Positions 4,254 to 28,330 of a stretch of 33,125 nucleotides of DNA are shown one piece after another. The notes under the pieces were generated by a model. That model saw only the letters and a list, made by a program, of their open reading frames with translations, searched no databases and had not been told where the DNA came from. Each line of letters starts with the position of its first letter. Within the stretch, counting starts at the first letter, position 1. Source of the DNA: a virus. Its lineage: Duplodnaviria > Heunggongvirae > Uroviricota > Caudoviricetes. Location: IMG/VR virus record IMGVR_UViG_2718218402_000003. The stretch is one strand, 5' to 3'. The position numbers were made by a program, and so were the translations under genes.

Positions 4254-4823
4254 ATGTCTGAAATCACAGTCTCCCGTCCGGAAGTGGTCAACGAGAATAC
4301 GGACGTTATCTGCTCCACCTCAGTCAGGTACAGGTCACTGGAATATGATAATTTTCCGGAAATCAGCGAAGCGAACATTCTGAGCACATTTGAACAACTG
4401 CACCAGAACAAAGATGAAGTGTTTGAACGGGGAGTGATCAACGTCTTCAAAGGGCTGAGCTGGGATTACAAAACCAACTCACCCTGTAAATTTGGCAGTA
4501 AAATTATCGTCAACAATCTGGTGAGATGGGACCAGTGGGGATTTCATCTTATCAGTGGAATGCAGGCAGATCGCCTGGCTGACCTGGAAAGAATGTTGCA
4601 TCTGCTCAGCGGTAAACCGATCCCCGACAACCGAGGGAATATCACCATTAATCTGGATGACCACATACAGTCCGTTCAGGGTAAAGGACGCTATGAAGAT
4701 GAGATGTTCATCATTAAATACTTTAAGAAGGGATCTGCACACATCACTTTCAAAAGGCTGGAGCTGATTGACAGAATTAACGATATAATAGCCAGGCACT
4801 TTCCTTCTGTGCTCTCAGCCTGA
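4254..4823 (+). CDS. Hypothetical protein (189 aa)
   Basis: Clean ORF with AGGAATA RBS-like sequence upstream; no family recognised with confidence. Confidence 0.5.
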   Translation: MSEITVSRPEVVNENTDVICSTSVRYRSLEYDNFPEISEANILSTFEQLHQNKDEVFERGVINVFKGLSWDYKTNSPCKFGSKIIVNNLVRWDQWGFHLISGMQADRLADLERMLHLLSGKPIPDNRGNITINLDDHIQSVQGKGRYEDEMFIIKYFKKGSAHITFKRLELIDRINDIIARHFPSVLSA

Positions 4824-4885
4824 CCCCGAGTTTGATTCCCTTTCGATATCAAAAGGGACTGCGGGTACAAAAGAGGGTACATATT

Positions 4886-5125
4886 TCACCAAACCAAACA
4901 AAATAAACTAATATCAACATGATAGAAGCATTCTTCGATTCCGAGTCCGGCACCAAACCCTGCAGCCATTACAGTGAGGTGTGTTGTTTCGCCATTTGGA
5001 TATTCACGCATGATGGTGTTAACTCCGGTCATCACTGGCACTACCATTGCTGGTTCAGAGTTAAAAAAAACTATTATTTTTTTCATAATGTTACCGTAAT
5101 ATGTGAGTATCCATCGACTAGACAC
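4886..5125 (-). CDS. Doubtful small ORF in the AT-rich island/prophage junction
   Basis: 79-aa frame overlapped by an equally plausible plus-strand ORF (4919-5128); neither recognised. Confidence 0.15.
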   Translation of the reverse strand: MSSRWILTYYGNIMKKIIVFFNSEPAMVVPVMTGVNTIMREYPNGETTHLTVMAAGFGAGLGIEECFYHVDISLFCLVW

Positions 5126-5127
5126 TA

Positions 5128-5150
5128 AGCAAAAAAGCTCCCGAAGGAGC
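5128..5150 (-). terminator. Rho-independent terminator (minus-strand sense)
   Basis: GCTCC-CGAA-GGAGC hairpin at 5137-5150 followed on the minus strand by TTTTTT (plus-strand A-run 5131-5136); lies about 200 nt downstream of cspI. Confidence 0.45.
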
Positions 5151-5357
5151 CTTCATTTTCACTTTCTTAAATCTAACGACAGATGGCTAACATTTAAGTA
5201 TTGTGAAATATTATCAAATGTAATCATCATTGATTTACAAAAGATACATTTTGCCCCGAAAGGATTTCTGTCAGAAACATCAAAAGATGATGTTCTATAC
5301 TGAGAACCATGGCAACACGGGCATCTAAAGTGAATATGGTTTGTAATATTTTCTACC

Positions 5358-5570
5358 TCAAAGTGCCACTACATGAACAGCTGCAGGGCCTTTAGGTCCG
5401 TTCTCAATACCAAATTCGACTTCCTGATTCTCAGTTAACGTTTTGAAATCGTTGCTCTGAATAGCTGAGAAATGCACAAACACATCTTTGCTACCATCTT
5501 TCGGCGTGATGAAACCAAAACCTTTTTCAGGGTTAAACCATTTCACTAAACCAGTCATTTTGTTAGACAT
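5358..5570 (-). CDS. cspI: Cold-shock protein, CspA family (Qin prophage CspI-like)
   Basis: 70-aa [21 protein letters not shown]...; RNP1-like KGFGFI motif; long AT-rich 5' leader upstream. Confidence 0.85.
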
Positions 5571-5933
5571 CATTATTACCTTTTGAAGAAGTTAGCCCTT
5601 GGGCAGAATGGTCCGAAAAAAAATATCAGAGAGAAAAACCAACAAGGAAATCTCAAGAGGTACAAATAATAAAATTATAACAATGACTGCTTCAGATAAT
5701 TTTGTAACAAACCAGAACACCATTAACGCATGATTAACCAACCATAGCAAGGATTACTTTTGTAAAGAAAAACACACGAATGAAACAATAGCTTTATTTA
5801 TTAATAAAACGTGTCATTCTGTCTAATGACCTTTTATCTTACCCCTAAGATTTCAAGGATTTTGACTCATGGAAGAGTCCTTTTTATTTAAATTTCACAT
5901 TCAGCGCTAAAAATAATCCGATTTAATATTAAT

Positions 5934-6957
<1,024 letters not shown>

Positions 6958-6961
<4 letters not shown>

Positions 6962-7269
6962 AGATATTTATGATGAGGACGCTCGTGCTTATTGGCAGGA
7001 TTTTCAATCTTAAAGGAGTACTGATGCTGCAGATAAGACTCAACTTTTTCTGACAATTTTTCTGCTACTTCCAGGAAGACTTGCCGGACGCTCATTCTGG
7101 CTGCTGCCTCATAAAACTCCAGCGCAGCTCCTTCAACACGGTCCATGGCGACATCCAGGCCAAAAATTTCACCGTCAAAGCGTTCTTTGTCCTGTAAGGC
7201 TACAGTTACCGTAACTTTATTCTCAAAATTACGGACTCCTTTCACAACCAGTTCATAGTCTTGAGTCAT
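6958..7269 (-). CDS. ydfR: DUF1327-family protein (YdfR-like)
   Basis: 103-aa ORF between holin and lysozyme, as in Qin. Confidence 0.6.
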
Positions 7270-7273
7270 TGGA

Positions 7274-7489
7274 TTACTCTCCTCTCGCAGCCTTACGCCT
7301 GTCTTCTTTAATCTTGAAATAAAGATTTGTCAGATACGTCAGCATGCCAAATACCAGACTACCCAATACACCTATTGCCGCCCACTGTGAGGGCGTGACT
7401 TTATCGAGCAACTGTAAAAACCAGTAGCCAGCACTGCCTGCAGAGGTGCTGTAGGCGATGCCCGTTGTTAACTTATCCATGGATTTCAT
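7274..7489 (-). CDS. essQ: Class II holin (EssQ/EssD-like)
   Basis: 71 aa from ATG at 7489 ([13 protein letters not shown]...) preceded by GGAGGTGA Shine-Dalgarno; the track ORF is extended upstream. Confidence 0.8.
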
Positions 7490-7679
7490 AGCCTCACCTC
7501 CGCAGATAACGGATGGTGTACACGGTTTGGTTCGAAGAAGGAAAGAAGTTACATTAGCGTAAGGCCCGAACATCTATTCAAAAAGAAAAACGCCAGCAAT
7601 TATTCTGGCGTAGCTAAAAATATCGTATAATCTTACACTTCAAAAAATAACTTTATAAAATGCCATCACATCATATCTT

Positions 7680-8402
7680 CTAAGAAAATCTTGATAAATA
7701 TTGGTGCGGAGGCACACCAAAATATCCTCTAAAAACACTTACAAAATATGATGCATTGTCATACCCGCATATTCCCGCCACCTTGCCGACAGTATGGTTA
7801 CTGTAGATCAATAATCTTTGCGCCATCATCATTCGTTCTTCAAGAATTAATTTACTAAACGATAATCCTTCGTCTTTTAATTTTCTTTTTAACAAACTCT
7901 CGCTCATATATAATCTTGAAGATATATCACAAAGTCTCCATGACGCTGAGATATCCGAGTGAATAATAGCCTTAACTTTACAACCTAAGCTATTAAGACT
8001 TCCGAACAAAAAACTTTGCACCATTTTCTCTGAAGATAAGACAGCAAGACATGCAAGTGATATTTGATTGCTAACTACATCCACGGTTTTGCTATCACAA
8101 TTCAAGCATGCAACCAAGTTCTTTAACAATGAAAAATCTTCACATTCTACTATCAAGTATGACGGATAAAACCTTCTTACAGAAAAAGGTGAGAGTGTGT
8201 AGTTTTTAAAGAAATCATTAACTGTTTTCTCCTCAACATCTACGATCATTAGATGATCTGTATTTGACGAAAAAAGATCTTTTAAATTGTATTCAATGAG
8301 GACAGCATTTCCTTTTTTAAACAAAATATCTTCTTTACCAATTCGGACACCAAACGAGTTCAACACCAAAATGATAGAACATATGTATGGCATATTATCC
8401 AC
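7680..8402 (-). CDS. AraC-family transcriptional regulator (AppY/EnvY/PerA-like)
   Basis: 240 aa with C-terminal AraC-type HTH region; gene is markedly AT-rich relative to flanks. Confidence 0.75.
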   Translation of the reverse strand: MDNMPYICSIILVLNSFGVRIGKEDILFKKGNAVLIEYNLKDLFSSNTDHLMIVDVEEKTVNDFFKNYTLSPFSVRRFYPSYLIVECEDFSLLKNLVACLNCDSKTVDVVSNQISLACLAVLSSEKMVQSFLFGSLNSLGCKVKAIIHSDISASWRLCDISSRLYMSESLLKRKLKDEGLSFSKLILEERMMMAQRLLIYSNHTVGKVAGICGYDNASYFVSVFRGYFGVPPHQYLSRFS

Positions 8403-8799
8403 CTGATATCATTGGGGTTACACCAGGTAAGTATAGGTGGAAAATCAATATTCGCCAGTTCAACAATAAGGAAAATCTCATTGCATCACAACTATAAAAC
8501 CATGTGTTTAACTCACAAAAAACAAATCATTAAACTAATCTGTTATATTATAATAGCTGCGTGCAATAATAATATTATATGCTCTTAATATTCACTTGAA
8601 ATATCTTCATATAAAAACAGATTGAATAAAATCTTTTGGGGCTGGTATGTTTACCAACATTAAATTGCATCTCAATGTTTTCTTTAGCGTGAACAGGATT
8701 TTTATAAAAACTGACACTATGAGCATCATAGCGTAGTTTTTACGATTGTAAATATCCTGCATACAGGAACTCATCACTTTCAGATGATATCGCATACAG

Positions 8800-9759
8800 T
8801 TAATTCACCATCAGTCTTAGAGCCAGTTCTTCCGGATAGGGATCGAAGTAATTCTGTGTAAGCAAGTAATCATTAGGATACTCACCCAGATAATGCTTCA
8901 GCAGAGTCAACGGCGCAAGAAGAGGCAATGTGCCAAAGCGATAGTTAAGTATAACCTCGCTCAACTCTTTACGCTGGCGTGTACTTAAGTAATTACTAAA
9001 ATACCCCTGTATATGCATCAGCACATTCGTGTGATTTTTACGTGATGCTGGTTTTCTGAGAATCGCCATCAGATTATCACGATACACCTCAAAGTATGAT
9101 TCAAGGTCCGCCCACTCGTGTATTGCAGCCACAAATGGTCCCATATCTTTATAGCCTGCCTGGCTATGCGCCAACAACTGAAGCTTATAACGACTATGAA
9201 AAGCTAATAACTCTCTTCTTGATAATTTCTCCTTGTAAAGGTGATTGAGCTCATGCAAAGCAAAAACTCTTTCAATAAAATTCTCACGAAGCACTGGATC
9301 ATGTAATCGCCCATCCTCTTCAACCGGTAGCCAGGAAAACTTTTCCATCAAAGTGCTCGTAAATAGTCCCACTCCATCTTTACGACCTCGATTACCATTT
9401 TCATCATAGACACGCACGCGCTCCATGCCACAGCTGGGAGATTTAGCACAAACCACAAACCCCGATACATCCTTTAATTTGTCCATATAAGAACGACTAA
9501 ACTCTGTCATTCTCTCTGTCACATCCTCATTCTGGTCGTGGCTGAAACACATCCGTATATTTCCTTGCTTCGAGCGCACAAGTCGTAGAGCAGGACGCGG
9601 AACTGGCAGCCCTATAGCCATTTCCGGACATACTGGTCTGAATGTTACCCATTCCACTAATTTGTCCATTAAAAAGTCATCTCTTTTGTGACCACCATCA
9701 AAACGAACAGCAGAACCGCCCAAACAACCGCTGATCCCAATCACAGGTTTTTTTATCAT
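8800..9759 (-). CDS. Fused DUF523/DUF1722 protein (YbgA-like; DUF523 domain resembles thiouracil desulfurase family)
   Basis: 319 aa; N-terminal GISGCLGG...RFDGGH motif; GGAGGA Shine-Dalgarno upstream of ATG. Confidence 0.6.
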   Translation of the reverse strand: MIKKPVIGISGCLGGSAVRFDGGHKRDDFLMDKLVEWVTFRPVCPEMAIGLPVPRPALRLVRSKQGNIRMCFSHDQNEDVTERMTEFSRSYMDKLKDVSGFVVCAKSPSCGMERVRVYDENGNRGRKDGVGLFTSTLMEKFSWLPVEEDGRLHDPVLRENFIERVFALHELNHLYKEKLSRRELLAFHSRYKLQLLAHSQAGYKDMGPFVAAIHEWADLESYFEVYRDNLMAILRKPASRKNHTNVLMHIQGYFSNYLSTRQRKELSEVILNYRFGTLPLLAPLTLLKHYLGEYPNDYLLTQNYFDPYPEELALRLMVN

Positions 9760-10160
9760 TTCCTCCCCCTTGACTAATTCATTAACACATAAACTTTGTA
9801 GTGCACGGACTAAATTGCCTTTCTGGCTTCATCACTGACAATTTTTCTGTTATTGACTATTCCTAATATAGTAGGAAAGTTCTTTAAGTGATCGGTCGTA
9901 CTCATCTATCTTTCATACTTACTCTCAACTATCAAAAGTACAGGATTTATTATGAAGTTATGGCCTGTGTTGACTGGCATTGCACTCTCTTTCACTCTTA
10001 TAGCATGTAAGGCCCCGACACCACCTAAAGGTGTGCAGCCGATTACAAATTTTGACGCCAACCGCTACCTCGGAAAATGGTATGAAATAGCTCGCTGATC
10101 TTACCCAGCAATAGTGGACACGCGGCTAAGTGAGTAAACTCTCAGTCAGAGGTGACTCAC

Positions 10161-10460
10161 ATGACAAAAACAGTATCAACCAGTAAAAAACCCCGTAAAC
10201 AGCATTCGCCTGAATTTCGCAGTGAAGCCCTGAAGCTTGCTGAACGCATCGGTGTTACTGCCGCAGCCCGTGAACTCAGCCTGTATGAATCACAGCTCTA
10301 CAACTGGCGCAGTAAACAGCAAAATCAGCAGACGTCTTCTGAACGTGAACTGGAGATGTCTACCGAGATTGCACGTCTCAAACGCCAGCTGGCAGAACGG
10401 GATGAAGAGCTGGCTATCCTCCAAAAGGCCGCGACATACTTCGCGAAGCGCCTGAAATGA
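10161..10460 (+). CDS. insE: IS3 OrfA (InsE-like)
   Basis: 99 aa from ATG 10161; HTH plus leucine-zipper-like region. Confidence 0.85.
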
Positions 10461-11323
10461 AGTATGTCTTTATTGAAAAACATCAGGCTGAGTTCAGCAT
10501 CAAAGCAATGTGCCGCGTGCTCCGGGTGGCCCGCAGCGGCTGGTATACGTGGTGTCAGCGGCGGACAAGGATAAGCACGCGTCAGCAGTTCCGCCAACAC
10601 TGCGACAGCGTTGTCCTCGCGGCTTTTACCCGGTCAAAACAGCGTTACGGTGCCCCACGCCTGACGGATGAACTGCGTGCTCAGGGTTACCCCTTTAACG
10701 TAAAAACCGTGGCGGCAAGCCTGCGCCGTCAGGGACTGAGGGCAAAGGCCTCCCGGAAGTTCAGCCCGGTCAGCTACCGCGCACACGGCCTGCCTGTGTC
10801 AGAAAATCTGTTGGAGCAGGATTTTTACGCCAGTGGCCCGAACCAGAAGTGGGCAGGAGACATCACGTACTTACGTACAGATGAAGGCTGGCTGTATCTG
10901 GCAGTGGTCATTGACCTGTGGTCACGTGCCGTTATTGGCTGGTCAATGTCGCCACGCATGACGGCGCAACTGGCCTGCGATGCCCTGCAGATGGCGCTGT
11001 GGCGGCGTAAGAGGCCCCGGAACGTTATCGTTCACACGGACCGTGGAGGCCAGTACTGTTCAGCAGATTATCAGGCGCAACTGAAGCGACATAATCTGCG
11101 TGGAAGTATGAGCGCAAAAGGTTGCTGCTACGATAATGCCTGCGTGGAAAGCTTCTTTCATTCGCTGAAAGTGGAATGTATCCATGGAGAACACTTTATC
11201 AGCCGGGAAATAATGCGGGCAACGGTGTTTAATTATATCGAATGTGATTACAATCGGTGGCGGCGGCACAGTTGGTGTGGCGGCCTCAGTCCGGAACAAT
11301 TTGAAAACCAGAACCTCGCTTAG
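10457..11323 (+). CDS. insF: IS3 OrfB transposase (InsF-like, DDE catalytic domain)
   Basis: 288 aa in the -1 frame relative to orfA with TGA/ATG overlap; matches IS3 InsF as I recall it. Confidence 0.9.
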
Positions 11324-11765
11324 GCCTGTGTCCATATTACGTGGGTAGGATCACGCCTCGAGAACTGGTTCGAACGTGGTCTGGAACAGGTCAGCGCTAC
11401 TTATGAAAAACGGAACGACGGAGGGATTCGCGTACTTAACCGTGGATACGATCCAACGAAAAACAAATGGAGCGAGAGCGAAGGTAAAGCATACTTTACT
11501 GGAGATACTAAAACTGCAGCGTTGAAAGTTTCGTTTTTTGGCCCCTTCTATGGTGGCTATAATGTAATCAAACTGGATGATGAGTATAAGTATGCTCTTG
11601 TCAGTGGTCCGAACAGAGAATACCTATGGATTCTGGCAAGGACCCAAACTATTCCAGATAATGTAAAAGCAGACTATGTGCGTACCGCTCAAAAGTTGGG
11701 ATTCAATGTCAATGAACTATTATGGGTTAAACAATAAAATCCCCACCCGAAATGATACTTATTAG

Positions 11766-11792
11766 AAAAAAACCAGCCTTTGGGGAGGCTGG
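11766..11792 (-). terminator. Terminator-like hairpin between blc 3' end and Q gene (probably bidirectional)
   Basis: A-run, then CCAGCCT-ttgggg-AGGCTGG; a T-run follows on the minus strand. Confidence 0.45.
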
Positions 11793-11892
11793 CTAAATCA
11801 GGAAACAAGCTGTTATATGATAATAACTACGTTGCGATTCCAACATTTAAAATGTTAGACTAATGAAAATCAGACAGCAACTTTTCCTTTAA

Positions 11893-12270
11893 TTATTTCG
11901 AACAATCAGCATCCATCTCCAATCGGAGATCCAACACCATCAGCATGCCCTCCACTACGCCCTCAGCTTTCTGGAGCATCCTGCCAACCCAACAATCAGA
12001 TCGCCCATGCTTACGTGCAAGCGCCATAAAAGTCATGCCGCCGACATAATAGTTCACCAATAAATCATGTAAATCGCTGTTGTTTTTTTTCAGGCGAGCC
12101 ATACATTCACAAATGATCATCGCGTCATCGTCACAGCATTGCGGACGAGATCTTACTTTTGAAGGAATTAATCCCTTAAAACCGGCGGCAATGGACGACC
12201 AGGTCACATCTTCATGATTATTAGCCGCCCATGCCCCCCAACGCTCAAGAACCATCTGAATATCACGCAT
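11893..12270 (-). CDS. quuQ: Late-gene antiterminator Q (QuuD/QuuQ, phage-82 Q family)
   Basis: From [26 protein letters not shown]..., matching DLP12/Qin Q proteins as recalled; sits upstream of the lysis/cargo region. Confidence 0.8.
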
Positions 12271-12287
12271 CAACTTACTCCACAAAA

Positions 12288-13337
12288 TTAGGCCAGCACA
12301 CCAATTGCCAGCGCGCGATCGATAAATCGAAAAATCAGCTCCAGTTGGGAGCCATACTTCTCTTCAAATGCCACGGTATCCGTATGCAACTCGTCGTGAT
12401 GCTTTCTGCACAAAGGCAAAACAAAGAGATCATGTGCTTTGGTTCCCATTCCGCCCTGCCCGTGACTAATCAGATGATGCGGATCGTCGGCTGGCATACC
12501 GCAGCAAGCACACGGCTGTGTCTTAACCCAGCGTGTGTATTTCTCCTTAACCCACCGGTGACGTTTAGGCAGCTTCATGAAAGATTCCGGAGACTCTGGA
12601 TCAACGGTGATGCTTACCACCGTCTTTTCCTGTGATGGGTTTTGTTGCTGGTGGGCGTGAGGCAACGGTGCAAGATTTTTTGTGCACTGTTTCAATATGC
12701 TGGTGGCGGTCTGCTCTCCCGGTACGATGTCGCTTTCGCGGTACACCGAGCAGATTTTTTCCGCTGGTAATCCCAGCGAGCGACGTAATACCGCTTCCGG
12801 TAGCGCGTCCGCCAGCTGATTGCGGACCGCCCACCAGGATAATTCAGCCAGAGATAATTCACGCTCCTGCGTACCGCTTATTGCGTGACCGATGACGTCA
12901 ATCATCCATGCTGACAGGTTTTGATGAGCAAGTTGCTCGAGTGATTCGGATGTCTGGTCACGCAGCTGGTTGTCGCAGTGCCAGCACAACACCATTGCGC
13001 CGGTACCATATCGGTGAATAACGGTTTCGCTGTGATGATAATCGCCGTGTGGCCACTGGCAGGATTTAATATGGCGCAACAGCCAGTCAGACAATGCACC
13101 AGCACCACCAGCAGCACGAATTACCCGTGCGTTACTGAAAAACGGCAGCAATGTTTTGTCTTCCACCAGCGGCTGGCGAACGGCAGGAACGACCCCGGAC
13201 GGCAGATTACGCATGCTTTTCGGTTCCGGCTCCACCAGTACCCGGGTATTGTGGAATACCGGCATGGATTCACGGCCCGGCTTAACGACCACCAGCCCGA
13301 GTTCCGGTACCAGAACAGGTCGAAGTAATACCCGCAC
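12288..13337 (-). CDS. ydfU: DUF968-family protein (YdfU-like)
   Basis: 349-aa ORF directly upstream of Q, as in Qin; start codon not verified. Confidence 0.6.
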
Positions 13338-14075: not shown

Positions 14076-14231
14076 TTACTCCTCAGGTTCGTAAGCTGTG
14101 AAGACAGCGACCTCCGTCTGGCCGGTTCGGATTCGTACCTCGCAGAGGTCTTTCCTCGTTACCAGTGCCGTCACTATGACGGTTAAACAGATGACGATCA
14201 GGGCGATTAACATCGCCTTTTGCTGCTTCAT
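14076..14231 (-). CDS. hokD: Hok/Gef-family type I toxin (HokD/RelF-like)
   Basis: 51 aa MKQQKAMLIALIVICLTVIVTALVTRKDLCEVRIRTGQTEVAVFTAYEPEE; AAGGAGAAG Shine-Dalgarno before ATG 14231; the track ORF extends upstream in frame. Confidence 0.85.
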   Translation of the reverse strand: MKQQKAMLIALIVICLTVIVTALVTRKDLCEVRIRTGQTEVAVFTAYEPEE

Positions 14232-14906
14232 AGCCTGCTTCTCCTTGCCTTTCGGCACGTAAGAGGCTAACCTAGATTTGCCGTTCATAGATTGAGCCTC
14301 AGATTAATGTTAAGCGTCTTGCAGGACGCGTAATGTTAACTGGGGCTTTTCTCTATCTGCCGTTGGTGTTCATGCCTGAGACAGATAGCCTCAAGCACCC
14401 GCAGCCATTCTACTTAACTCCCGTCACCTCGCCAATATGAAATCAGTCAGAAAGGCGATCCATAAGAACAACAGCAAGGCAATAAATTGCCATTACAGCA
14501 GCAATAGCCAGCGCACATTTGAGAACCAGCACCACAACCTCCTGTATTGGACGTACACCAGTCCTGATAAATATGAGGCTGTCTCGTCAGTGATTCAATA
14601 CAACTATTGGGTATAGTTTCTGTGATTTTGTTCTGTAGAAATGGAACACAACAACCAGTCACCACCAGCACTTCTTTAAATACGCCAAGTCCGACGCAAG
14701 CTAACCTTCTAGGCCGCTTTGAGCGAAGAGCGGACGCTCGCATCTGTCCCAACACACTGAGGGCTTCACGAACACCTAGGTGTACTCGTCAACTGGGAAA
14801 AAGTCAGATTATCTGTAAGCGTACAGCCTGAACCGTCTGGTCAGAATCTGACGAATTAGACAAAGTGGTGTCCACCAAATAAGTAGTGGGAACCAAAGTA
14901 TCAGAT

Positions 14907-15287
14907 ATGCAGAAAAATGTGACTCCCGGCAGGCGAAAAGGCTGCCCTAATTATCCTCCCGAATTTAAACAGCAGCTCGTTGCTGCCTCCTGTGAACCCG
15001 GGATATCCATCTCAAAACTTGCTCTTGAAAATGGCATTAACGCCAATCTGTTGTTCAAATGGCGACAACAATGGCGCGAGGGAAAGCTGCTATTACCTTC
15101 TTCAGAGAGCCCCCAGCTACTTCCTGTGACTCTCGATGCAGCTGCCGAACAGCCAGAATCGCTCGCAGAGGACCCGGAAACCCTCAGTATCAGCTGTGAG
15201 GTAACGTTCCGGCACGGGACGCTCCGCTTCAATGGCAATGTCAGCGAAAAGCTCCTGACTCTGCTGATACAGGAACTGAAGCGATGA
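14907..15287 (+). CDS. IS66-family TnpA (orf1)
   Basis: ATG at 14907 (MQKNVTPGRRKG...); the track start at 14886 is a GTG. Confidence 0.8.
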   Translation: MQKNVTPGRRKGCPNYPPEFKQQLVAASCEPGISISKLALENGINANLLFKWRQQWREGKLLLPSSESPQLLPVTLDAAAEQPESLAEDPETLSISCEVTFRHGTLRFNGNVSEKLLTLLIQELKR

Positions 15288-15631
15288 TCCCGTTACCTTC
15301 CGGGACCAAAATTTGGCTGGTTGCCGGTATCACCGATATGAGAAATGGCTTCAACGGCCTGGCTGCGAAAGTACAAACGGCGCTGAAAGACGATCCCATG
15401 TCCGGCCATGTTTTCATTTTCCGGGGCCGCAGCGGCAGTCAGGTTAAACTGCTGTGGTCCACCGGTGACGGACTGTGCCTCCTGACCAAACGGCTGGAGC
15501 GTGGGCGCTTCGCCTGGCCGTCAGCCCGTGATGGCAAAGTGTTCCTTACGCAGGCGCAGCTGGCGATGCTGCTGGAAGGTATCGACTGGCGACAGCCTAA
15601 GCGGCTGCTGACCTCCCTGACCATGCTGTAA
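15284..15631 (+). CDS. IS66-family TnpB (orf2)
   Basis: 115 aa, overlapping tnpA stop; characteristic IS66 orf2. Confidence 0.85.
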
Positions 15632-15680
15632 ATCTCTTTATCCTGGTTGTCACAGAATAAGCCCGGTAAAATACGGGCTT

Positions 15681-17219
15681 ATGAACGACATCTCTTCTGA
15701 CGACATCTTCCTGCTGAAACAGCGCCTGGCCGAACAGGAAGCGCTGATCCACGCCCTGCAGGAAAAGCTGAGCAACCGGGAGCGCGAAATAGACCATCTG
15801 CAGGCGCAGCTGGATAAACTCCGCCGGATGAACTTCGGCAGTCGTTCCGAAAAAGTCTCCCGCCGTATCGCACAAATGGAAGCCGATCTGAACCGGCTTC
15901 AGAAAGAGAGCGATACGCTGACTGGTAGGGTGTATGACCCGGCAGTACAGCGTCCGTTGCGTCAGACCCGCACCCGTAAGCCGTTCCCTGAATCACTACC
16001 CCGTGACGAAAAGCGACTGTTGCCTGCGGCGCCGTGCTGCCCGAACTGCGGCGGTTCACTGAGCTATCTGGGCGAGGATACCGCCGAACAGCTGGAGTTG
16101 ATGCGTAGCGCCTTCCGGGTTATCCGGACGGTACGGGAAAAACATGCCTGTACTCAGTGCGATGCCATCGTGCAGGCACCTGCACCTTCGCGGCCCATCG
16201 AGCGGAGTATCGCCGGACCGGGGCTGCTGGCCCGCGTGCTGACCTCGAAGTATGCAGAGCACACCCCGCTGTATCGCCAGTCAGAAATATACGGCCGGCA
16301 AGGTGTGGAGCTGAGGCGTTCACTGCTGTCGGGCTGGGTGGATGCATGCTGCCGGCTGCTGTCTCCGCTGGAAGAGGCGCTTCATGGCTATGTCATGACT
16401 GACGGCAAACTCCATGCCGATGATACCCCGGTCCAGGTACTGCTGCCGGGTAATAAGAAGACGAAGACCGGGCGGTTGTGGGCGTATGTTCGTGATGACC
16501 GCAATGCAGGGTCAGCGTTGGCACCTGCAGTGTGGTTCGCTTACAGCCCGGACAGAAAAGGCATCCATCCGCAGACTCATCTTGCCTGCTTCAGCGGTGT
16601 GCTGCAAGCGGATGCGTACGCCGGGTTCAACGAGCTGTATCGCAATGGTGGGATAACGGAAGCTGCCTGCTGGGCTCATGCCCGCCGAAAGATCCACGAT
16701 GTGCACGTCCGCATCCCGTCAGCACTGACGGAAGAAGCCCTGGAGCAGATCGGTCAGTTGTACGCCATAGAGGCGGATATAAGGGGAATGCCGGCAGAGC
16801 AGCGGCTTGCTGAACGTCAGCGAAAAACGAAACCGTTGTTGAAATCCCTGGAAAGCTGGTTGCGTGAAAAGATGAAGACCCTGTCGCGACACTCAGAGTT
16901 GGCGAAGGCGTTCGCGTACGCACTTAACCAGTGGCCGGCACTGACGTACTATGCGAACGATGGCTGGGTGGAAATCGACAACAACATCGCTGAAAATGCC
17001 CTGCGGGCGGTCAGTCTGGGTCGTAAAAACTTCCTGTTCTTCGGCTCTGACCATGGTGGTGAGCGGGGAGCGCTACTGTACAGCCTGATCGGGACGTGCA
17101 AACTGAATGACGTGGATCCAGAAAGCTACCTTCGCCATGTGCTTGGCGTCATAGCAGACTGGCCGGTCAACCGGGTCAGCGAACTGCTTCCGTGGCGCAT
17201 AGCACTGCCAGCTGAATAA
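15681..17219 (+). CDS. IS66-family transposase TnpC
   Basis: 512 aa with N-terminal leucine zipper, CxxC...CxxC zinc finger and DDE region. Confidence 0.9.
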
Positions 17220-17280
17220 CACATCCCCGTCAATACGGCCCTCGCTGTACGCTTACGATTATCTGCGTAAGTTTCAGCGT

Positions 17281-17329: not shown

Positions 17330-20300
17330 CTATGTATCTGAGCCAAACATAGAGCGCCGCCTTGTTATTTTATAATAAGTGGGATTTTCATTATCCACCT
17401 CAAAATCAGAGAAGAAGTGGTTATCTCTTAATGCTGTTAATAAACTTTGATTAGTTGAATCAACTTCAATTTTAGGTTTGCCTCGCCCCAAAATTTTACT
17501 GAACTCCGATAAACCAAGCAGATCAAGATACTCTTTGCAAGTCGTCTTACTCAAATCCTTACCCGGCAACAAAGCGATTAGCAGTGCTATTTTATTCTGC
17601 ATATTCAGTCCCTCTGCGACAAACAGGTTTTTTAGTAACGGTTCAGAAACATCATTAGGACTTGCTATCAATGCTGATATATCCTGTATTGCTCGACTCA
17701 AGATGAGCGACTGAGTAGAGGTTCCCCAAGTTTTATAAGATGACGTCAAGATTAGAAGTTCATCTGGTTTAAAATTATTTTCTAAAATATAGTCATTAAC
17801 GACCTGAGAGTAATTCTTACTATAAATAGCCAACGGAGTTTTAACAAACTCGAGTAGCTTAACTTTCAAATCATCATCAACTTTCCAAGAAAGTATTGAT
17901 ATAGCCTCATCCAAAATAAAGTTATCAATCGTCATTAATTCAACGTATGCCCTGATATTCTTATGAATATAATAGGAAAGTTGCTCTGAATAGTTATCTC
18001 GTATGAAATTAAGTGGCGCAACATTCATACGAATAATATTTTTATCCACTAATATTTTGAACTTATCACTCGCGATATTACTAGCGCTAAAGGATGTTTT
18101 ACAAATAATATTTAGTGAGCAAATTAATTTTTCATATTTATCATTTGATAAATCATTACAGATAACAATCGATTTAAATAATTTACCTTTAAGCTCGTTA
18201 TCAATATTAATATTTTGAAAATTCAGGTCTACATCAGTTCTATTGATAAATTCGATAAGTGAGTCATCCAGTCCATCAACATGTTCAAAATAAGAGACAA
18301 TATTTTCCTCAGAGCACACTGCTCTATCTTTATCCAACAAAGATGACCATAAAGATTCGCTCTCAACCTCACTCAGAGATGTCACGAAAGTTTGCAAAGC
18401 GTTTATATACTGGCCTTTTTGTTCATCAGATATTCCCTCATTATTAAGAACGGATAAAACAATGGATTCATCATCCACGATTGAACCATCACAACTAGAT
18501 AAAACCATATCCAGATAGTCCCTAATATGGTTATTAACATAACTAGCCAAGGGAGAATCAGGTTGTGACATCACTAGTGTATAGTTCTTATGGCGAATAT
18601 CATCTTCACTATTAAGCGTGTAAACCTTACTCAGCATTAAGGTCAGGTTGGAAAAATTAATATCATAAAGTGAATGCTGGTAAACCGCATCAAAGAGTAC
18701 TTTATTTGCGTTTTCAAATTTAATACTGACAAAAGAAACGTTAAGCAACTTAAAACCACTAATTAATTTGTCAACCTTCGGTTCTGATATTGCTAAATAA
18801 CCTGCCGAATCAGAGATGTAATCAGTCAGACAATCATCAATATTAATGGCCTCGATGGCGTCATTGGCAGAATAATAAAACGTGCCTATAGAGTAGAGTT
18901 TAACCCAATCAGCAGAAAATTCACTCTCTGTCAGCGCATAAGAAAAAAACTCAGGCCACTGTGTATTTAATCGATTAATGAAGACAGGCTGAGCCCTCTC
19001 AGTTTCAAAGTAACCACGAATAAACTCAACTCTTCTATCTTTTCTTAGTTGTTTGAATAAACGTTTTATTAAGTTTACCTGGGCTGGCGTTTGAAGCAGA
19101 TAAGCTAATAAATCAAAATTAAGCGCCTCTTCCTGTTCAAAATCCACTTCTCGAAGGCGGGCAACGACCAGCTTGGGGTTCTTGAGTTGATAAGTGAACT
19201 CTTTGCCTTTTTGATCGGTAATGCTGCGTAAAAACATCTTATCAATTCGACTCAGGCTATTTTCATAAAAATAGGTCATATAGTCGGTATAGGTTTCATC
19301 AATATAACCATCACGAATAAGGTATTTAAGCAAGTCAAAATACTCACTGCTTTTTATTTCATTAAAGTCTCTTTCCTCTCCAATTTCATTGGTATAGGTG
19401 AGTTTAAATATTTCATCAATGTTTTCTCTAGTTATTACTTCTTTAAGTCTTTTGTTTCTAGAATCAACCAAACTTTCTCTTGATCTTGATATAAGCTCAT
19501 TAATTTCTTCTATTTTACCATTAAATTTATTTTCAACACTTTCTTTTCTAGCCGCCCTTCTCTTTGCTATATCAGCTTTCTCAGCCTGATTATAGTGAGG
19601 ATGATTATTATATCTAGATAATTCCTTATCGTATATAGCATCAACCTCCTGACTAGAGTTGAGTATTTCATCATTGATTGCCTCAATCTCTTTTTTTCTA
19701 TCTCTAATATCTTTTTCTATTTTCTTTATTTCTTCAATAATAAGGTTGTCTTTTTCACTAAATATGGTATAAACCATACCTTGATTAAGTTGCAACTCAC
19801 TAAAATCTCTTGGGAAAATATTCTTATAGGCAATAATGGCCAACATTTTATTACAGTCAAGTTCTGTCGTGTTTAATTTGTTATAATAAATTTGAAATTC
19901 GTTATAAATATTCTTCAATATTCTCATATCATCAATATATAAAGACATCCCTTGTAGAAATCTTTCATTGAACAACTTGAGAATACCACCACCATCAAAA
20001 TGTGTGATAAACTGATCGTAAGAGTTAGAACTATCAACAACAGGAATAACTGGAATGATATAATCAAAGAATTTGGTTCTATCCTTCGAAATGAAGATAT
20101 CATCACGAAGCAAGTAAATAAAACGTAACGTCGATTTCTTGTGCCCTGCTGTGTCCCGTTGAATATTAACCAGTCTGTTAACCTCATGAAGACGTTCAAA
20201 GATGTTATTACTATTAAAACGGTCCATGTCTTCAAAAACAATGGCATCAGCATCAACGTTCTCGAAAAGGTACAATACTTCATTTAAATATCTATCGAAA

Positions 20301-20962
20301 TAAGACTCGTTACTTTCTTCAAAAATCTCTATTTCATTACCCTGTAAATTTATTTTCTTAAGAACATTACGATTCTTTTGGGTTTTTATTAACTTGTAAA
20401 TGAAAATACAAGATAGGATAGTACATATAAACCCACTAATTAAAAGCGTATCGTATTTAGTTGATAATGTAAGTAGTGTCTTTATATTACCTTCAGATAA
20501 AAGTGAAACAAACTTTTCCCACTTATTAAATAGCGTGATATGTAGTATCATAGCGATAAATAACACCGTAAAGATGGTGTTTATCACAATGTTGTTAGTT
20601 TTTATTTTTTTCTTTACTTTAAAATGTGTCTGGGGAATATCATCAGCATTAATTTGGTGAATTAACTGGTTAAGAACTTTACCTTCTAACGCGGTTTCAT
20701 TTATATCTTTACTTGGTTCATTAGTTTCAGCTTCCTCAATCGATCTGAAATGAGCAAGTGAGATATGAACAAACTTTATATTTGAATGACTTTTCTTATA
20801 GGATTCGATAAGACTACTTTTTCCTGCGCTATATTGCCCTGATATCGCAACATTTTTTAGATCGTTATTGGCAAAAACAAAATCTATCGCATTTTTATAT
20901 ACACCCAGCTCAACATCGCTGAACGGCGTTAACTTTTGAAATTTATAGCTATCATCACTCAT
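17330..20962 (-). CDS. Large (1210 aa) membrane-inserted P-loop NTPase, KAP/YobI-like; candidate stand-alone phage-defence or abortive-infection protein
   Basis: Walker A GQYSAGKS (aa 42-49, nt about 20816-20839), two predicted TM helices (aa about 125-145 and 172-192) between Walker A and Walker B IVFEDMD (aa 241-247); coiled-coil-like segment aa about 400-500; about 950 aa of unassigned C-terminal sequence; strongly AT-rich by eye; SD GGAAGGGA upstream; own terminator. CDS is certain, function is inferred. Confidence 0.6.
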   Translation of the reverse strand: MSDDSYKFQKLTPFSDVELGVYKNAIDFVFANNDLKNVAISGQYSAGKSSLIESYKKSHSNIKFVHISLAHFRSIEEAETNEPSKDINETALEGKVLNQLIHQINADDIPQTHFKVKKKIKTNNIVINTIFTVLFIAMILHITLFNKWEKFVSLLSEGNIKTLLTLSTKYDTLLISGFICTILSCIFIYKLIKTQKNRNVLKKINLQGNEIEIFEESNESYFDRYLNEVLYLFENVDADAIVFEDMDRFNSNNIFERLHEVNRLVNIQRDTAGHKKSTLRFIYLLRDDIFISKDRTKFFDYIIPVIPVVDSSNSYDQFITHFDGGGILKLFNERFLQGMSLYIDDMRILKNIYNEFQIYYNKLNTTELDCNKMLAIIAYKNIFPRDFSELQLNQGMVYTIFSEKDNLIIEEIKKIEKDIRDRKKEIEAINDEILNSSQEVDAIYDKELSRYNNHPHYNQAEKADIAKRRAARKESVENKFNGKIEEINELISRSRESLVDSRNKRLKEVITRENIDEIFKLTYTNEIGEERDFNEIKSSEYFDLLKYLIRDGYIDETYTDYMTYFYENSLSRIDKMFLRSITDQKGKEFTYQLKNPKLVVARLREVDFEQEEALNFDLLAYLLQTPAQVNLIKRLFKQLRKDRRVEFIRGYFETERAQPVFINRLNTQWPEFFSYALTESEFSADWVKLYSIGTFYYSANDAIEAINIDDCLTDYISDSAGYLAISEPKVDKLISGFKLLNVSFVSIKFENANKVLFDAVYQHSLYDINFSNLTLMLSKVYTLNSEDDIRHKNYTLVMSQPDSPLASYVNNHIRDYLDMVLSSCDGSIVDDESIVLSVLNNEGISDEQKGQYINALQTFVTSLSEVESESLWSSLLDKDRAVCSEENIVSYFEHVDGLDDSLIEFINRTDVDLNFQNINIDNELKGKLFKSIVICNDLSNDKYEKLICSLNIICKTSFSASNIASDKFKILVDKNIIRMNVAPLNFIRDNYSEQLSYYIHKNIRAYVELMTIDNFILDEAISILSWKVDDDLKVKLLEFVKTPLAIYSKNYSQVVNDYILENNFKPDELLILTSSYKTWGTSTQSLILSRAIQDISALIASPNDVSEPLLKNLFVAEGLNMQNKIALLIALLPGKDLSKTTCKEYLDLLGLSEFSKILGRGKPKIEVDSTNQSLLTALRDNHFFSDFEVDNENPTYYKITRRRSMFGSDT

Positions 20963-25061: not shown

Positions 25062-25124
25062 TTTCTGGTGACGTTTGGCGGTATCAGTTTTACTCCGTGA
25101 CTGCTCTGCCGCCCTTTTTAAAGT
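25062..25124 (+). ncRNA. dicF: DicF small regulatory RNA (ftsZ-targeting) with intrinsic terminator
   Basis: TTTCTGGTGACGTTTGGCGGTATCAGTTTTACTCCGTGACTGCTCTGCCGCCC followed by TTTTT; matches DicF as recalled; between ydfC and dicB. Confidence 0.8.
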
Positions 25125-27116: not shown

Positions 27117-27443
27117 ATGACTAAAAATACACGTTTTTCCCCCGAGGTCCGTCAACGGGCAGTTCGTATGGTTCTGGAAAGTCAGGGCGAATATGACTCA
27201 CAATGGGCGGCAATTTGTTCCATTGCCCCAAAGATTGGCTGTACGCCAGAGACTCTGCGAGTGTGGGTTCGTCAGCATGAACGGGATACCAGGAGTGGTG
27301 ATAGTGGACTCACCACCGCTGAACGTCAGCGTCTGAAAGAGCTGGAACGTGAAAATCGTGAACTGCGCCGCAGTAACGATATCCTTCGCCAGGCTTCCGC
27401 TTATTTTGCGAAGGCGGAGTTCGACCGCCTCTGGAAAAAATAA
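27117..27443 (+). CDS. IS629-like OrfA
   Basis: 108 aa [22 protein letters not shown]... Confidence 0.85.
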
Positions 27444-28330
27444 TGCCACTGCTGGATAAGCTGCGTGAGCAGTACGGGGTCGGACCGGTATGCAGTGAAC
27501 TGCATATTGCCCCGTCAACGTATTACCACTGTCAGCAACAGCGACATCATCCTGATAAACGTAGTGCCCGTGCGCAGCGCGATGACTGGCTGAAGAGAGA
27601 GATACAGCGCGTATACGATGAAAATCATCAGGTGTACGGTGTGCGTAAAGTCTGGCGCCAGTTGTTACGCGAAGGTATCAGGGTGGCCAGATGTACAGTG
27701 GCGCGCCTCATGGCGGTTATGGGACTTGCCGGTGTTCTCCGGGGTAAAAAGGTCCGTACTACCGTCAGCCGGAAAGCCGTTTCCGCAGGCGACCGCGTAA
27801 ACCGTCAGTTCGTGGCAGAACGTCCTGACCAGCTGTGGGTGGCTGATTTTACTTACGTCAGCACATGGCAGGGCTTCGTCTATGTGGCGTTCATCATTGA
27901 TGTGTTTGCCGGATGCATCGTGGGGTGGCGAGTCTCATCGTCTATGGAAACGACATTCGTGCTGGATGCACTGGAGCAGGCGTTGTGGGCCCGTCGGCCG
28001 TCCGGCACAGTCCATCACAGTGATAAAGGTTCTCAGTATGTATCACTGGCCTATACGGAGCGACTAAAAGAAGCAAAACTGCTGGCATCAACAGGGAGTA
28101 CAGGTGACTCGTATGACAACGCGATGGCGGAGAGCATCAATGGTCTTTACAAAGCGGAGGTAATACACCGTAAGAGCTGGAAAAACCGTGCAGAAGTGGA
28201 ACTGGCCACACTCACGTGGGTGGACTGGTATAACAATCGACGATTGCTGGGAAGGCTGGGTCATATCCCTCCGGCAGAAGCAGAAAAAGCTTATTATGCT
28301 TCCATCAGAAACGATGATCTGGCAGCCTGA
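27443..28330 (+). CDS. IS629-like OrfB transposase (DDE)
   Basis: 295 aa in the -1 frame relative to orfA (TAATG overlap). Confidence 0.9.
   Translation: MPLLDKLREQYGVGPVCSELHIAPSTYYHCQQQRHHPDKRSARAQRDDWLKREIQRVYDENHQVYGVRKVWRQLLREGIRVARCTVARLMAVMGLAGVLRGKKVRTTVSRKAVSAGDRVNRQFVAERPDQLWVADFTYVSTWQGFVYVAFIIDVFAGCIVGWRVSSSMETTFVLDALEQALWARRPSGTVHHSDKGSQYVSLAYTERLKEAKLLASTGSTGDSYDNAMAESINGLYKAEVIHRKSWKNRAEVELATLTWVDWYNNRRLLGRLGHIPPAEAEKAYYASIRNDDLAA

Follow-up and report, generated by a model that had tools for sequence, protein, structure and literature searches.

A rudS, blc and araC cargo cassette of known kind between Q and holin in a Qin-like lambdoid prophage

We have found that three genes bounded by the late-gene antiterminator on one side and the lysis genes on the other in a Qin-like prophage form an accessory cassette of lambda-like Escherichia coli phages, of an already known kind. 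Its cargo is a RudS tRNA 4-thiouridine (s4U) "eraser", a lipocalin of the Blc type and an AraC regulator of the PatE/Psr type. The cassette is real and widespread, yet largely known already; this account rests on what was observed, namely the identity and arrangement of the genes, their distribution, the purifying selection on them and an IS insertion. The overall explanation that we consider probable is a mobile Q-cargo-holin module whose rudS-blc pair was captured from a chromosome and whose AraC gene has a separate history. The window is the whole 33,125-nucleotide stretch that was analyzed (IMG/VR record IMGVR_UViG_2718218402_000003), and it contains the following features.

7274–7489, minus strand: class II (P21 S-type) holin gene (Pfam Phage_holin_2_1, 6.1e-34; RefSeq essD, 216 nt)
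7590–7611, minus strand: hairpin and T-run, intrinsic-terminator-like, in the gap between the AraC gene and the holin gene (-11.3 kcal/mol, z -2.8)
7680–8393, minus strand: AraC/XylS regulator gene, PatE/Psr/GadW subgroup (237 aa from ATG at 8393; 240 aa if GTG at 8402 is the start)
8725–8752, minus strand: promoter-like TTTACA-16-TATGAT, predicted only (10 of 12 consensus matches; about 330 nt upstream of the AraC start)
8800–9759, minus strand: rudS, an intact TudS(DUF523)-DUF1722 fusion of 319 aa (Pfam; PHROG 3275, 1.5e-224)
9760–9951, no strand assigned: rudS/blc divergent intergenic region, 192 bp, 34% GC, highly conserved among alleles
9952–10095, plus strand: 5' part of the blc-like lipocalin gene, 48 codons with the signal peptide and the lipobox LIAC
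10096–11353, plus strand: IS3 insertion, 1258 bp (orfA 10161–10460, orfB 10457–11323)
11354–11737, plus strand: 3' fragment of the lipocalin gene, identified from the reconstructed product
11771–11794, minus strand: hairpin and T7, a tR'-like terminator candidate (-14.9 kcal/mol, z -4.4), invariant among alleles
11893–12270, minus strand: Q-type late antiterminator gene, 125 aa (Pfam Phage_antitermQ, 1.1e-50)

A sequence-only reading had placed three moron-like cargo genes between holin and Q of a Qin-like prophage, and this was borne out: all three are present, recognized by Pfam, NCBIfam and PHROG, and are flanked by holin and Q. The corresponding K-12 Qin slot, from the homologous holin to ydfU, does hold cspB/cspF, as had been said; it contains ynfU-cspB-cspF-ynfS along with another Q. 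The cargo also deviates in composition, with a GC content of 31-43% versus 47% in the window. Module borders were mapped by comparison with K-12 Qin and four other phages. The holin, common to all cassette-bearing phages, is the left end of a mosaic module, and homology with L003-L006 begins at 7273. Q, of a type unlike ydfT of K-12, is the right end; among the matches listed, cassette-bearing IMG/VR loci that have all five genes carry this Q at 96% identity or more. Homology shared with other cassette-bearing phages stops at 12312, and K-12 Qin homology resumes at 12288. Positions 7273–12312 probably represent a single mosaic module of lambdoid coliphages, made up of Q, cargo and holin, that recombined into a Qin-like prophage, displacing the Q/cspB/cspF version of K-12.

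Using an 85%-identity threshold, the IS-free cassette was detected in 1153 of 5426 complete E. coli genomes, always in the order Q, blc (opposite strand), DUF523/DUF1722, AraC, holin. The same order occurs in prophages of the Qin-like, DLP12-like and lambda-nin types, as well as in free phages, 1H12 and IdasGreatGrand among them, and blc has been listed among the morons of infant-gut lambdas (Mathieu et al. 2020, PMC6969025). The arrangement Q+ blc- rudS+ araC+ holin+ (signs denoting relative strand) was seen with fixed spacings at 67 of 80 IMG/VR loci. Full-length blc is present at 78 of these 80 loci and a full-length AraC gene at 64, the latter being missing from some cassette variants; one variant found through rudS-blc alone, MS20675, carries a 77%-identical AraC allele of the 1H12 type. 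Values of dN/dS between 0.06 and 0.28 show that purifying selection acts on all three genes. The AraC gene has a higher dS than rudS (0.33-0.59 versus 0.04-0.29) and shows recombinant alleles, and its history is therefore, as far as allele comparison tells, separate from and more mosaic than that of rudS-blc. Damaged copies occur as well: rudS of E. coli B is broken by IS3, most of the cassette is deleted in C41(DE3), and in the window IS3 has knocked out blc, with rudS and the AraC gene both left intact.

The protein described as a DUF523/DUF1722 fusion is indeed that fusion, with both Pfam domains, but the label is outdated and a function as RudS can be assigned. DUF523 is the 2-thiouracil desulfurase domain PF04463 (5.8e-40, residues 7-149), and DUF1722 is PF08349 (9.4e-40, residues 192-309). 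The product is 91.9% identical to RudS_vir, which is gp66 of Escherichia phage 1H12. Every RudS catalytic residue is retained in the window copy, including the [4Fe-4S] ligands Cys12, Cys44 and Cys110, numbered as in RudS_vir/RudS_ST (Table 1, PMC11417400), and Glu46, Arg55, Ser107 and Ser109 within the CPE...PRP and SPSCG motifs, as aligned to TudS 6Z92. On this sequence evidence we identify the protein as RudS, a [4Fe-4S] tRNA s4U desulfidase, an enzyme expected to turn near-UV-sensitive 4-thiouridine in tRNA back into uridine. RudS_vir lowered tRNA s4U in vivo; among the RudS enzymes tested it was the weakest on tRNA and had the shortest lag with free 4-thiouracil (PMC11417400), which counts against a settled tRNA substrate in the phage setting.

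The lipocalin had been described as a divergent Blc homolog. Its family assignment holds, but the gene is not intact, the IS3 copy at 10096–11353 having been overlooked. The insertion splits the reading frame after codon 48, so that blc in the window is a pseudogene, and in RefSeq the identical locus appears as a pseudogene in two incomplete pieces. The element is complete, with imperfect terminal inverted repeats (ends TGATC(T/C)TACCCA) and Pfam HTH_Tnp_1 and rve matches, and is bordered by a 3-bp target duplication, CGC, at 10093–10095 and 11354–11356. A length of about 1.26 kb, repeats starting from TGA, an orfA/orfB -1 frameshift, a DDE (rve) transposase and the 3-bp duplication define IS3, and all are present; RefSeq labels the insertion 'IS3-like element IS3 family transposase, programmed frameshift'. 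The exact junction was found at 100% identity only in strain 19KM2326N. Removal of the element and one CGC in silico restored a 174-aa lipoprotein with the lipobox L-I-A-C19 and Lys at +2 (Lipocalin_2, 7.5e-43; NCBIfam Blc, 312.6 bits versus a cut-off of 267; PDB Blc match, 8e-67), which shows 100% identity to the intact lipocalin of REL606 and 58.6% to that of K-12 (Blc). The surrounding prophage contains several IS elements as well as frameshifts.

A C-terminal AraC domain with a double helix-turn-helix, about 100 aa long, is present in the regulator, with Pfam HTH_18 at 59.8 bits (cut-off 33.6; profile positions 2-79 of 80) and HTH_AraC at 42.7 bits (cut-off 26.6), together with a match to PHROG 1450 (4.6e-97). 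An AF2 model (pLDDT 84.6) gave a whole-chain match to Rns/CsvR/ToxT, and its C-terminal domain superimposed on the GadX DNA-binding domain with a TM of 0.88-0.91. Homology to the subgroup (about 240-250 aa) extends over the full length, and its N-terminal beta-rich domain is there, with its start M-x-x-x-C-S-(V/I)-(I/V), in which C5 and S6 are invariant in the alignment. Full-length alignments gave 48% identity to Sakai ECs_0287, which we take to be PatE on account of its prophage (Sp1 = OI-8), 34% to GadW, 30% to AppY and 29% to YdeO; EnvY (31%) and GadX align only in part. The proposed likeness to AppY/EnvY therefore stands at the subfamily level only, the closest characterized kin being PatE/PsrA/PsrB and then GadW. 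Orthology to YdeO, GadX or HilD was ruled out by the NCBIfam equivalog cut-offs (115.2 versus 348, 89 versus 500 and 92.6 versus 354, respectively).

The AT-richness that had been noted is evident in the base composition, with 31-37% GC in intergenic DNA (31% in the 406-bp spacer upstream of the AraC gene) and 34% in the AraC gene versus 47% in the whole window. On the further claim that the genes have signals of their own, the results are mixed. Two late-strand hairpins and one promoter-like block are conserved, but site counts from consensus scans are at chance level (promoter-like, 15 versus 11.1±3.9 expected; terminator-like, 8 versus 4.3±2.0). The hairpin at 7590–7611 is kept in the ST648, 1H12 and IdasGreatGrand alleles. 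That at 11771–11794, about 100 nt downstream of Q, is predicted to terminate a short late-promoter transcript, the promoter of which would lie within 11800–11892. The TTTACA-16-TATGAT block is nearly invariant, the 1H12 allele included, inside a diverged, indel-rich spacer. No strong sigma-70 consensus was found by the scan in 9760–9951, where a good -35 element is missing.

These features bear on an alternative that is possible if somewhat doubtful, namely that the cassette mainly serves to carry an H-NS-silenced, AppY-like AraC regulator, which would rewire host stress or virulence regulons in the lysogen, with the other two genes as passengers. The regulator is a true AraC member of the AppY/GadW/YdeO/PatE/Psr subgroup; its gene and upstream spacer are AT-rich and the promoter-like block is conserved; and its relatives PatE, PsrB and AppY switch on the gadE/hdeA acid-resistance genes (PMC10877973; PMC10057817). 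Against this, the AraC gene is retained less consistently than the rest of the cassette, rudS and blc are under purifying selection too, and identity to AppY/EnvY is only about 30%.

The preferred reading, a mobile module with captured cargo, draws on chromosomal loci of other Enterobacterales. There, blc lies within 6 kb at 42 of 62 rudS loci, 38 of which are arranged blc-merR-rudS and three as divergent blc and rudS without merR; one of the latter, in C. sedlakii, has a 187-bp gap and housekeeping neighbors. Phage Blc is 75-80% identical to the rudS-linked chromosomal lipocalins, as opposed to 59% to E. coli Blc. Since the phage lipocalin and RudS are both about 75% identical to the chromosomal blc-merR-rudS locus, they look captured together. 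The best chromosomal matches are only 74-80% identical, and the GC3 of phage rudS is 0.40 versus a chromosomal median of 0.70; with these gaps we assign no donor and infer the co-capture. Most likely, judging from these homologies, rudS and blc were taken up together from an enterobacterial stress locus, blc<-merR->rudS, and the MerR gene would have been lost at capture. Related RudS loci are reported to be light- or MerR-controlled. Against this origin, no conserved MerR-type operator was recognized in the phage intergenic region. No conserved chromosomal locus was found for all three genes, the three-gene unit having been found only in (pro)phage contexts; the conserved chromosomal blc-rudS pair, two of the three genes, points to origin and does not refute the prophage-cargo reading.

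That the AraC protein is a local regulator of rudS/blc, standing in for the chromosomal MerR/MlrA-like regulator, strikes us as unlikely. A MerR gene is nearly always beside the chromosomal pair and missing from the phage version; the AraC gene adjoins the pair in 67 of 80 phage loci, and the lack of a good -35 element is compatible with activator dependence. However, the AraC gene is downstream of the pair, not between rudS and blc, its dS and recombinant alleles indicate a separate history, variants with an AraC part below 85% identity are still found via rudS-blc alone (checked for MS20675), and AraC relatives work at distant host promoters. It is very improbable that the region is decaying junk of a cryptic prophage with no present function, as the IS3-disrupted blc here, the E. 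coli B and C41(DE3) remnants and the IS elements and frameshifts of the prophage might suggest, given intact rudS and AraC genes, dN/dS of 0.06-0.28, and the presence of the cassette, invariant in architecture, in viable phage isolates and in one E. coli genome out of five.

Returning to the mobile-module explanation, expression of the cassette can be envisaged as follows. The rudS and AraC genes are co-oriented with Q and the lysis genes, so that upon induction late-promoter read-through by Q-modified polymerase is expected, which would resemble that of stx in Stx phages. During lysogeny, rudS and the AraC gene would rely on their own weak promoters in AT-rich, terminator-bounded DNA, with the Blc-type outer-membrane lipocalin transcribed divergently from rudS and the PatE/Psr-type activator gene following it. 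The benefit may be host or phage tolerance of UVA-induced translation arrest, and the AraC targets, by analogy with PatE/PsrB/AppY, may be acid-resistance/GAD-type genes. We tentatively suggest, with rather less than even confidence in so specific a scheme, that rudS-blc is a captured stress module serving as phage auxiliary genes, that induction floods the cell with RudS, and that AraC sets the basal level in the lysogen. After UV/SOS induction, Q-dependent RudS would erase s4U8 from tRNA, and this loss would shield the translation of late phage proteins from UVA-triggered tRNA cross-linking and the stringent response. Basal expression would be set by the PatE-like AraC regulator rather than by the lost MerR-type one. 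If this is true, s4U content and near-UV physiology are prophage-dependent, strain-variable traits of E. coli.

The RudS literature treats E. coli as being without a tRNA s4U eraser, yet about one fifth of sequenced strains have a copy on a lambdoid prophage; widely used B-lineage strains retain only broken remnants. Strain-dependent RudS implies that the s4U content of tRNA, the growth delay under UVA, and the outcome of s4U-based labelling or cross-linking may differ between strains. The AraC protein is an unstudied PatE/Psr paralog in many commensal and extraintestinal pathogenic strains. The cassette also exemplifies the assembly of phage cargo, in which a chromosomal stress pair without its MerR-type regulator was apparently joined to a prophage-type AraC regulator, in a high-expression slot that is also used by Shiga toxin genes.

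Comparison with known systems places each part of the cassette. Other lambdoid Q-S cargo (stx in Stx phages; cspB/cspF in Qin) has the same place downstream of Q and a short terminated late transcript, a composition unlike the backbone, and presence or absence among related phages. Q-dependent expression has been demonstrated for stx, whereas for the cassette we infer it, and blc of the cassette runs against the direction of late transcription. E. coli Blc (b4149; PDB 1QWD/2ACO/3MBT) shares the Lipocalin_2 fold, an outer-membrane-type +2 lipoprotein signal and a similar length with the phage lipocalin, which is nonetheless closer to the rudS-linked lipocalins of Enterobacter, Serratia and Citrobacter. 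AppY, EnvY, GadW, GadX and YdeO of K-12 are likewise AraC/XylS regulators, of an acid and stationary-phase stress network, and AppY is prophage-encoded (DLP12) and under H-NS control (PMC10057817), but the AraC protein is only 29-34% identical to this group. PatE (z0321, OI-8), PsrA (z1789/ECs1087) and PsrB (z2104) of EHEC O157:H7 are prophage-borne members of the same subfamily, with the same size and 'CS(V/I)I' start, and psrA of the Sakai prophage Sp4 likewise has its place downstream of Q. The AraC protein is 39% (full length) to 47% (C-terminal 160 aa) identical to the Psr proteins and, because identity is below 50%, is not a PatE/Psr ortholog; its gene, unlike theirs, occurs in non-EHEC commensal, ExPEC and laboratory strains, beside rudS/blc and not effector genes. 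RudS_vir of 1H12 has the same fusion, 319-aa length, Cys12/44/110 ligands, catalytic motifs and Q-blc-rudS-araC-holin slot, but belongs to a free phage, while the window copy is a different allele in a defective Qin-like prophage. Bacterial RudS proteins (P. putida PP_0741, Salmonella STM1389/ORF319) are related TudS-DUF1722 fusions, and E. coli was said to be without RudS (Jamontas et al., NAR 2024, PMC11417400), whereas the RudS cassette is present in 21% of complete E. coli genomes.

Widely distributed and already annotated, the cassette between Q and the holin gene encodes an enzyme that was characterised earlier from this same cassette in Escherichia phage 1H12. We add its prevalence in E. 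coli, the mosaic boundaries of the Q-to-holin region, the repeated damage of the cassette by IS3, and a probable source for rudS and blc, a chromosomal blc-merR-rudS locus from which they would have been captured. The region is laid out as follows.

11893-12270, minus strand: Q antiterminator, 125 aa (Pfam Phage_antitermQ, 1.1e-50)
11794-11771, minus strand: strong hairpin with a T7 run
9952 (start) to 11737 (end), plus strand: Blc-type lipocalin gene, divergent from the fusion gene and 192 bp from it
8800-9759, minus strand: DUF523+DUF1722 fusion, 319 aa
Between the fusion gene and the AraC gene: spacer of 406 bp, 31% GC
7680-8393, minus strand: AraC-type protein, 237 aa
7611-7590, minus strand: second hairpin with a T-run
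7274-7489, minus strand: P21-type holin, followed by ydfR, lysozyme and Rz

Both terminators are conserved. The spacers have a GC content of 31-37%; that of the AraC gene is 34% and that of rudS and blc 43%, the figure for the whole window being 47%. The equivalent place in K-12 Qin holds ynfU-cspB-cspF-ynfS, including the cspB/cspF named in the sequence-only reading, together with a 250-aa Q (ydfT). The longest holin ORF has 99 aa and begins at 7573 (minus strand), 28 codons upstream of the RefSeq start at 7489; this N-terminal extension (7490-7573) is probably not translated, because the Pfam holin model covers residues 33-95 only. A 62-aa ORF in the AraC-rudS spacer (8607-8795) was rejected as a gene, having no Pfam or PHROG match and being missing or indel-ridden in other alleles.

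TudS-DUF1722 fusions strip sulfur from tRNA 4-thiouridine (s4U), and RudS_vir, gp66 of phage 1H12, was among the enzymes tested in vivo (Jamontas et al. 2024, PMC11417400). The window fusion protein is RudS: it is 91.9% identical to 1H12 gp66 over all 319 residues and keeps Cys12, Cys44 and Cys110, Glu46 and Arg55 of the CPE...PRP motif, and Ser107 and Ser109 of the SPSCG motif. Desulfidase activity is predicted for this allele from its sequence. The interpretation offered earlier, of an AppY/EnvY-like regulator beside a DUF523/DUF1722 protein and a Blc homologue, was right in outline, although its description of the enzyme was dated and that of the regulator imprecise. E. coli has been said to be without TudS/RudS homologues (PMC11417400). 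K-12 agrees, with only YbgA, which shares 49% identity with the C-terminal domain of RudS, but the statement is untrue for the fifth of strains that carry the cassette.

The original observation holds except for the lipocalin gene, which is not intact as first read: a complete IS3 at 10096-11353, missed in that reading, breaks it after codon 48. This copy has 1258 bp, imperfect terminal inverted repeats, orfA (HTH_Tnp_1) and orfB (rve), and is flanked on both sides by the 3-bp duplication CGC. Removal of IS3 and one CGC restores a reading frame for a 174-aa lipoprotein that matches its intact REL606 counterpart at 100% identity. In the identical locus of strain 19KM2326N, RefSeq annotates the lipocalin as two incomplete pieces; that genome alone matched this exact junction at 100% identity, and in about six others IS3 lies at a different place in blc. 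E. coli B REL606 carries IS3 within rudS rather than blc (10227-12447 of its locus), an independent insertion. The C41(DE3) locus (4808-6147) retains a 49-codon rudS stub beside an intact blc, and there a second copy of IS3 appears to be responsible for the deletion of the AraC gene, the lysis genes and the 3' part of rudS. Chance activity of IS3 has thus left the B-lineage expression hosts RudS-negative.

The AraC protein clears Pfam cut-offs and reaches no NCBIfam equivalog cut-off. In a word-seeded search its homologues were from Escherichia coli only, where the source gives a name. Its closest full-length relative in the comparison was Sakai ECs_0287 (47.7% identity), followed by full-length Psr-type proteins (38-39%), GadW (34%), AppY (30%) and YdeO (29%); partial alignments gave 47% to the C-terminal 160 aa of PsrA (ECs_1087; locus tag from PMC13502914) and 31% to EnvY. 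ECs_0287 is the sole regulator of PatE/Psr type in prophage Sp1, and we infer that it is PatE, since that regulator is encoded in OI-8, to which Sp1 corresponds. In prophage Sp4, psrA is located just downstream of Q. It is annotated there with 195 aa, and its frame (6678-7391 of the Sakai Sp4 locus) stays open upstream as far as an ATG. Translation from that ATG would give about 237 aa beginning MVVVCSVIMV, which agrees with the 236 aa of full-length Psr-type proteins (P0015-P0017); the true start probably lies upstream of the annotated one. An AlphaFold model of the window protein (pLDDT 84.6) matched Rns, CsvR and ToxT over the whole chain, and its C-terminal domain matched the GadX DNA-binding domain with a TM of ~0.9. 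PatE, PsrB and AppY act on acid-stress promoters (PMC10877973, PMC10057817), and by analogy this regulator may do the same. PADLOC matched neither this protein nor RudS to any defence-system model. 'orf10' of the APEC prophage phiv142-3, reported to affect serum resistance and capsule, was considered as the AraC regulator and rejected, its knockout-primer sequence being absent from the window; 'lipocalin' occurs in its paper only within a reference.

The IS-free 3058-bp cassette was matched by 1153 of 5426 complete E. coli genomes (882 with at least 80% coverage), in two main allele groups of ~99% and ~94% identity. All contexts examined had the same order of Q, blc (on the opposite strand), fusion gene, AraC and holin; they included Qin-like (19KM2326N, REL606), DLP12-like (ST648) and lambda-nin-type (MS20675) prophages and the isolated phages of the 1H12/Lambda_ev series and IdasGreatGrand. 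The same order was found in 67 of the best 80 IMG/VR loci, where the spacings are fixed at 162, 193, 355 or 410, and ~191-213 bp; among the matches listed for loci that have all five genes, Q was at least 96% identical. Homology to other cassette phages extends over 7273-12312, and that to K-12 Qin is lost at 7518 and returns at 12288. The mobile unit is therefore a mosaic Q-cargo-holin module, not the three genes alone. Among 19 infant-gut lambdas, over half are already listed as having blc as a moron (Mathieu et al. 2020, PMC6969025). Two short contigs of a Saccharibacteria MAG ('Candidatus Nanosynbacter', JARKOR010000151/135) carry rudS/araC/holin/IS3 and Q/blc/IS3 at 92-100% identity; this E. 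coli prophage cassette is almost certainly present there through binning contamination.

After induction, Q-modified RNA polymerase would transcribe rudS and the AraC gene at a high level, as with stx, because both lie on the strand that carries Q and the lysis genes, behind a tR'-like terminator; such late transcription would read blc antisense. A consensus search for a late promoter downstream of Q gave no clear site, the best candidates scoring 7-9/12. In the lysogen, expression would come from weak promoters in AT-rich DNA and end at the terminator at 7611-7590, ahead of the holin gene. One candidate promoter, TTTACA-16-TATGAT at 8752-8725, is conserved within an otherwise diverged spacer. 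Silencing by H-NS, predicted solely from base composition, is plausible. Less s4U in tRNA leads to less UVA-induced growth delay (PMC11417400), and lowering s4U could benefit the lysogen, or the phage in UV-triggered lytic growth. No Rfam family reached threshold in 7200-12400, where one sub-threshold match was the terminator hairpin, and a search for tRNA genes found none.

The cassette genes are under purifying selection: pairwise dN/dS among four alleles ranged from 0.20 to 0.26 in the AraC gene, from 0.11 to 0.28 in rudS and from 0.06 to 0.23 in blc. Synonymous divergence was far higher in the AraC gene (dS 0.33-0.59) than in rudS (0.04-0.29). One AraC allele (P0003) is a clear recombinant, window-type at both ends and 1H12-type in the middle (alignment A1), and the regulator thus shows intragenic mosaicism. 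Among the best 80 IMG/VR loci, blc was full length in 78 and the AraC gene in 64, with 11 AraC alignments shortened or containing stops.

Elsewhere in the window, the prophage early region holds a 1210-aa ORF (17330-20962, minus strand; 29-36% GC) that matches a Pfam YobI-like P-loop NTPase (8.3e-123) and the PADLOC 'Tmn' model (1e-66), and is therefore a candidate anti-phage defence gene; 19KM2326N annotates it as two hypothetical proteins. An IS66-family element at 14816-17256 (HTH_Tnp_1, TnpB_IS66 and DDE_Tnp_IS66 ORFs) is missing from the otherwise 99.9%-identical 19KM2326N prophage, and past ~21887 the two diverge; the window thus comes from a related but different genome. Four Rfam matches lay above the gathering score:

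5312-5728, minus strand: cspA thermoregulator (cspI leader)
14226-14400, minus strand: sok antitoxin RNA (hokD locus)
25063-25114, plus strand: DicF sRNA
27398-27514, plus strand: ALIL pseudoknot (frameshift signal, IS3-family element)

The closest RudS proteins outside E. coli are chromosomal, with 319 aa and 66-76% identity. Sorting of 62 chromosomal rudS loci, one genome per species, gave the following arrangements.

38 of 62: blc(-) merR(+) rudS(+)
16 of 62: rudS ending a SnoaL-SDR-amine oxidase-DUF1365-CFA synthase-DUF2878-x-DUF3833 operon (1 of the 16 also with blc-merR upstream)
3 of 62: blc directly divergent from rudS, without merR
2 of 62: merR-rudS without blc
3 of 62: rudS alone

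The phage-like arrangement occurs in Citrobacter sedlakii with a 187-bp gap, flanked by transporter, pseudouridine synthase and aspartokinase genes. RudS genes have been reported in light-responsive operons and under MerR/LitR control (PMC11417400); the rudS-linked MerR is of the MlrA family, 44% identical to E. coli MlrA. Comparison of the phage rudS-blc and chromosomal blc-merR/rudS intergenic regions for a common MerR-type operator or motif found only short, differently placed similarities. The donor of the phage pair is unsampled, and GC3 of the phage rudS is 0.40 versus a chromosomal median of 0.70. It is probable that rudS and blc were taken up as one unit from a chromosomal blc-merR-rudS locus, with loss of merR. 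Against the rudS-linked lipocalins of these loci, the phage lipocalin has 75-80% identity; against E. coli Blc it has only 58.6%.
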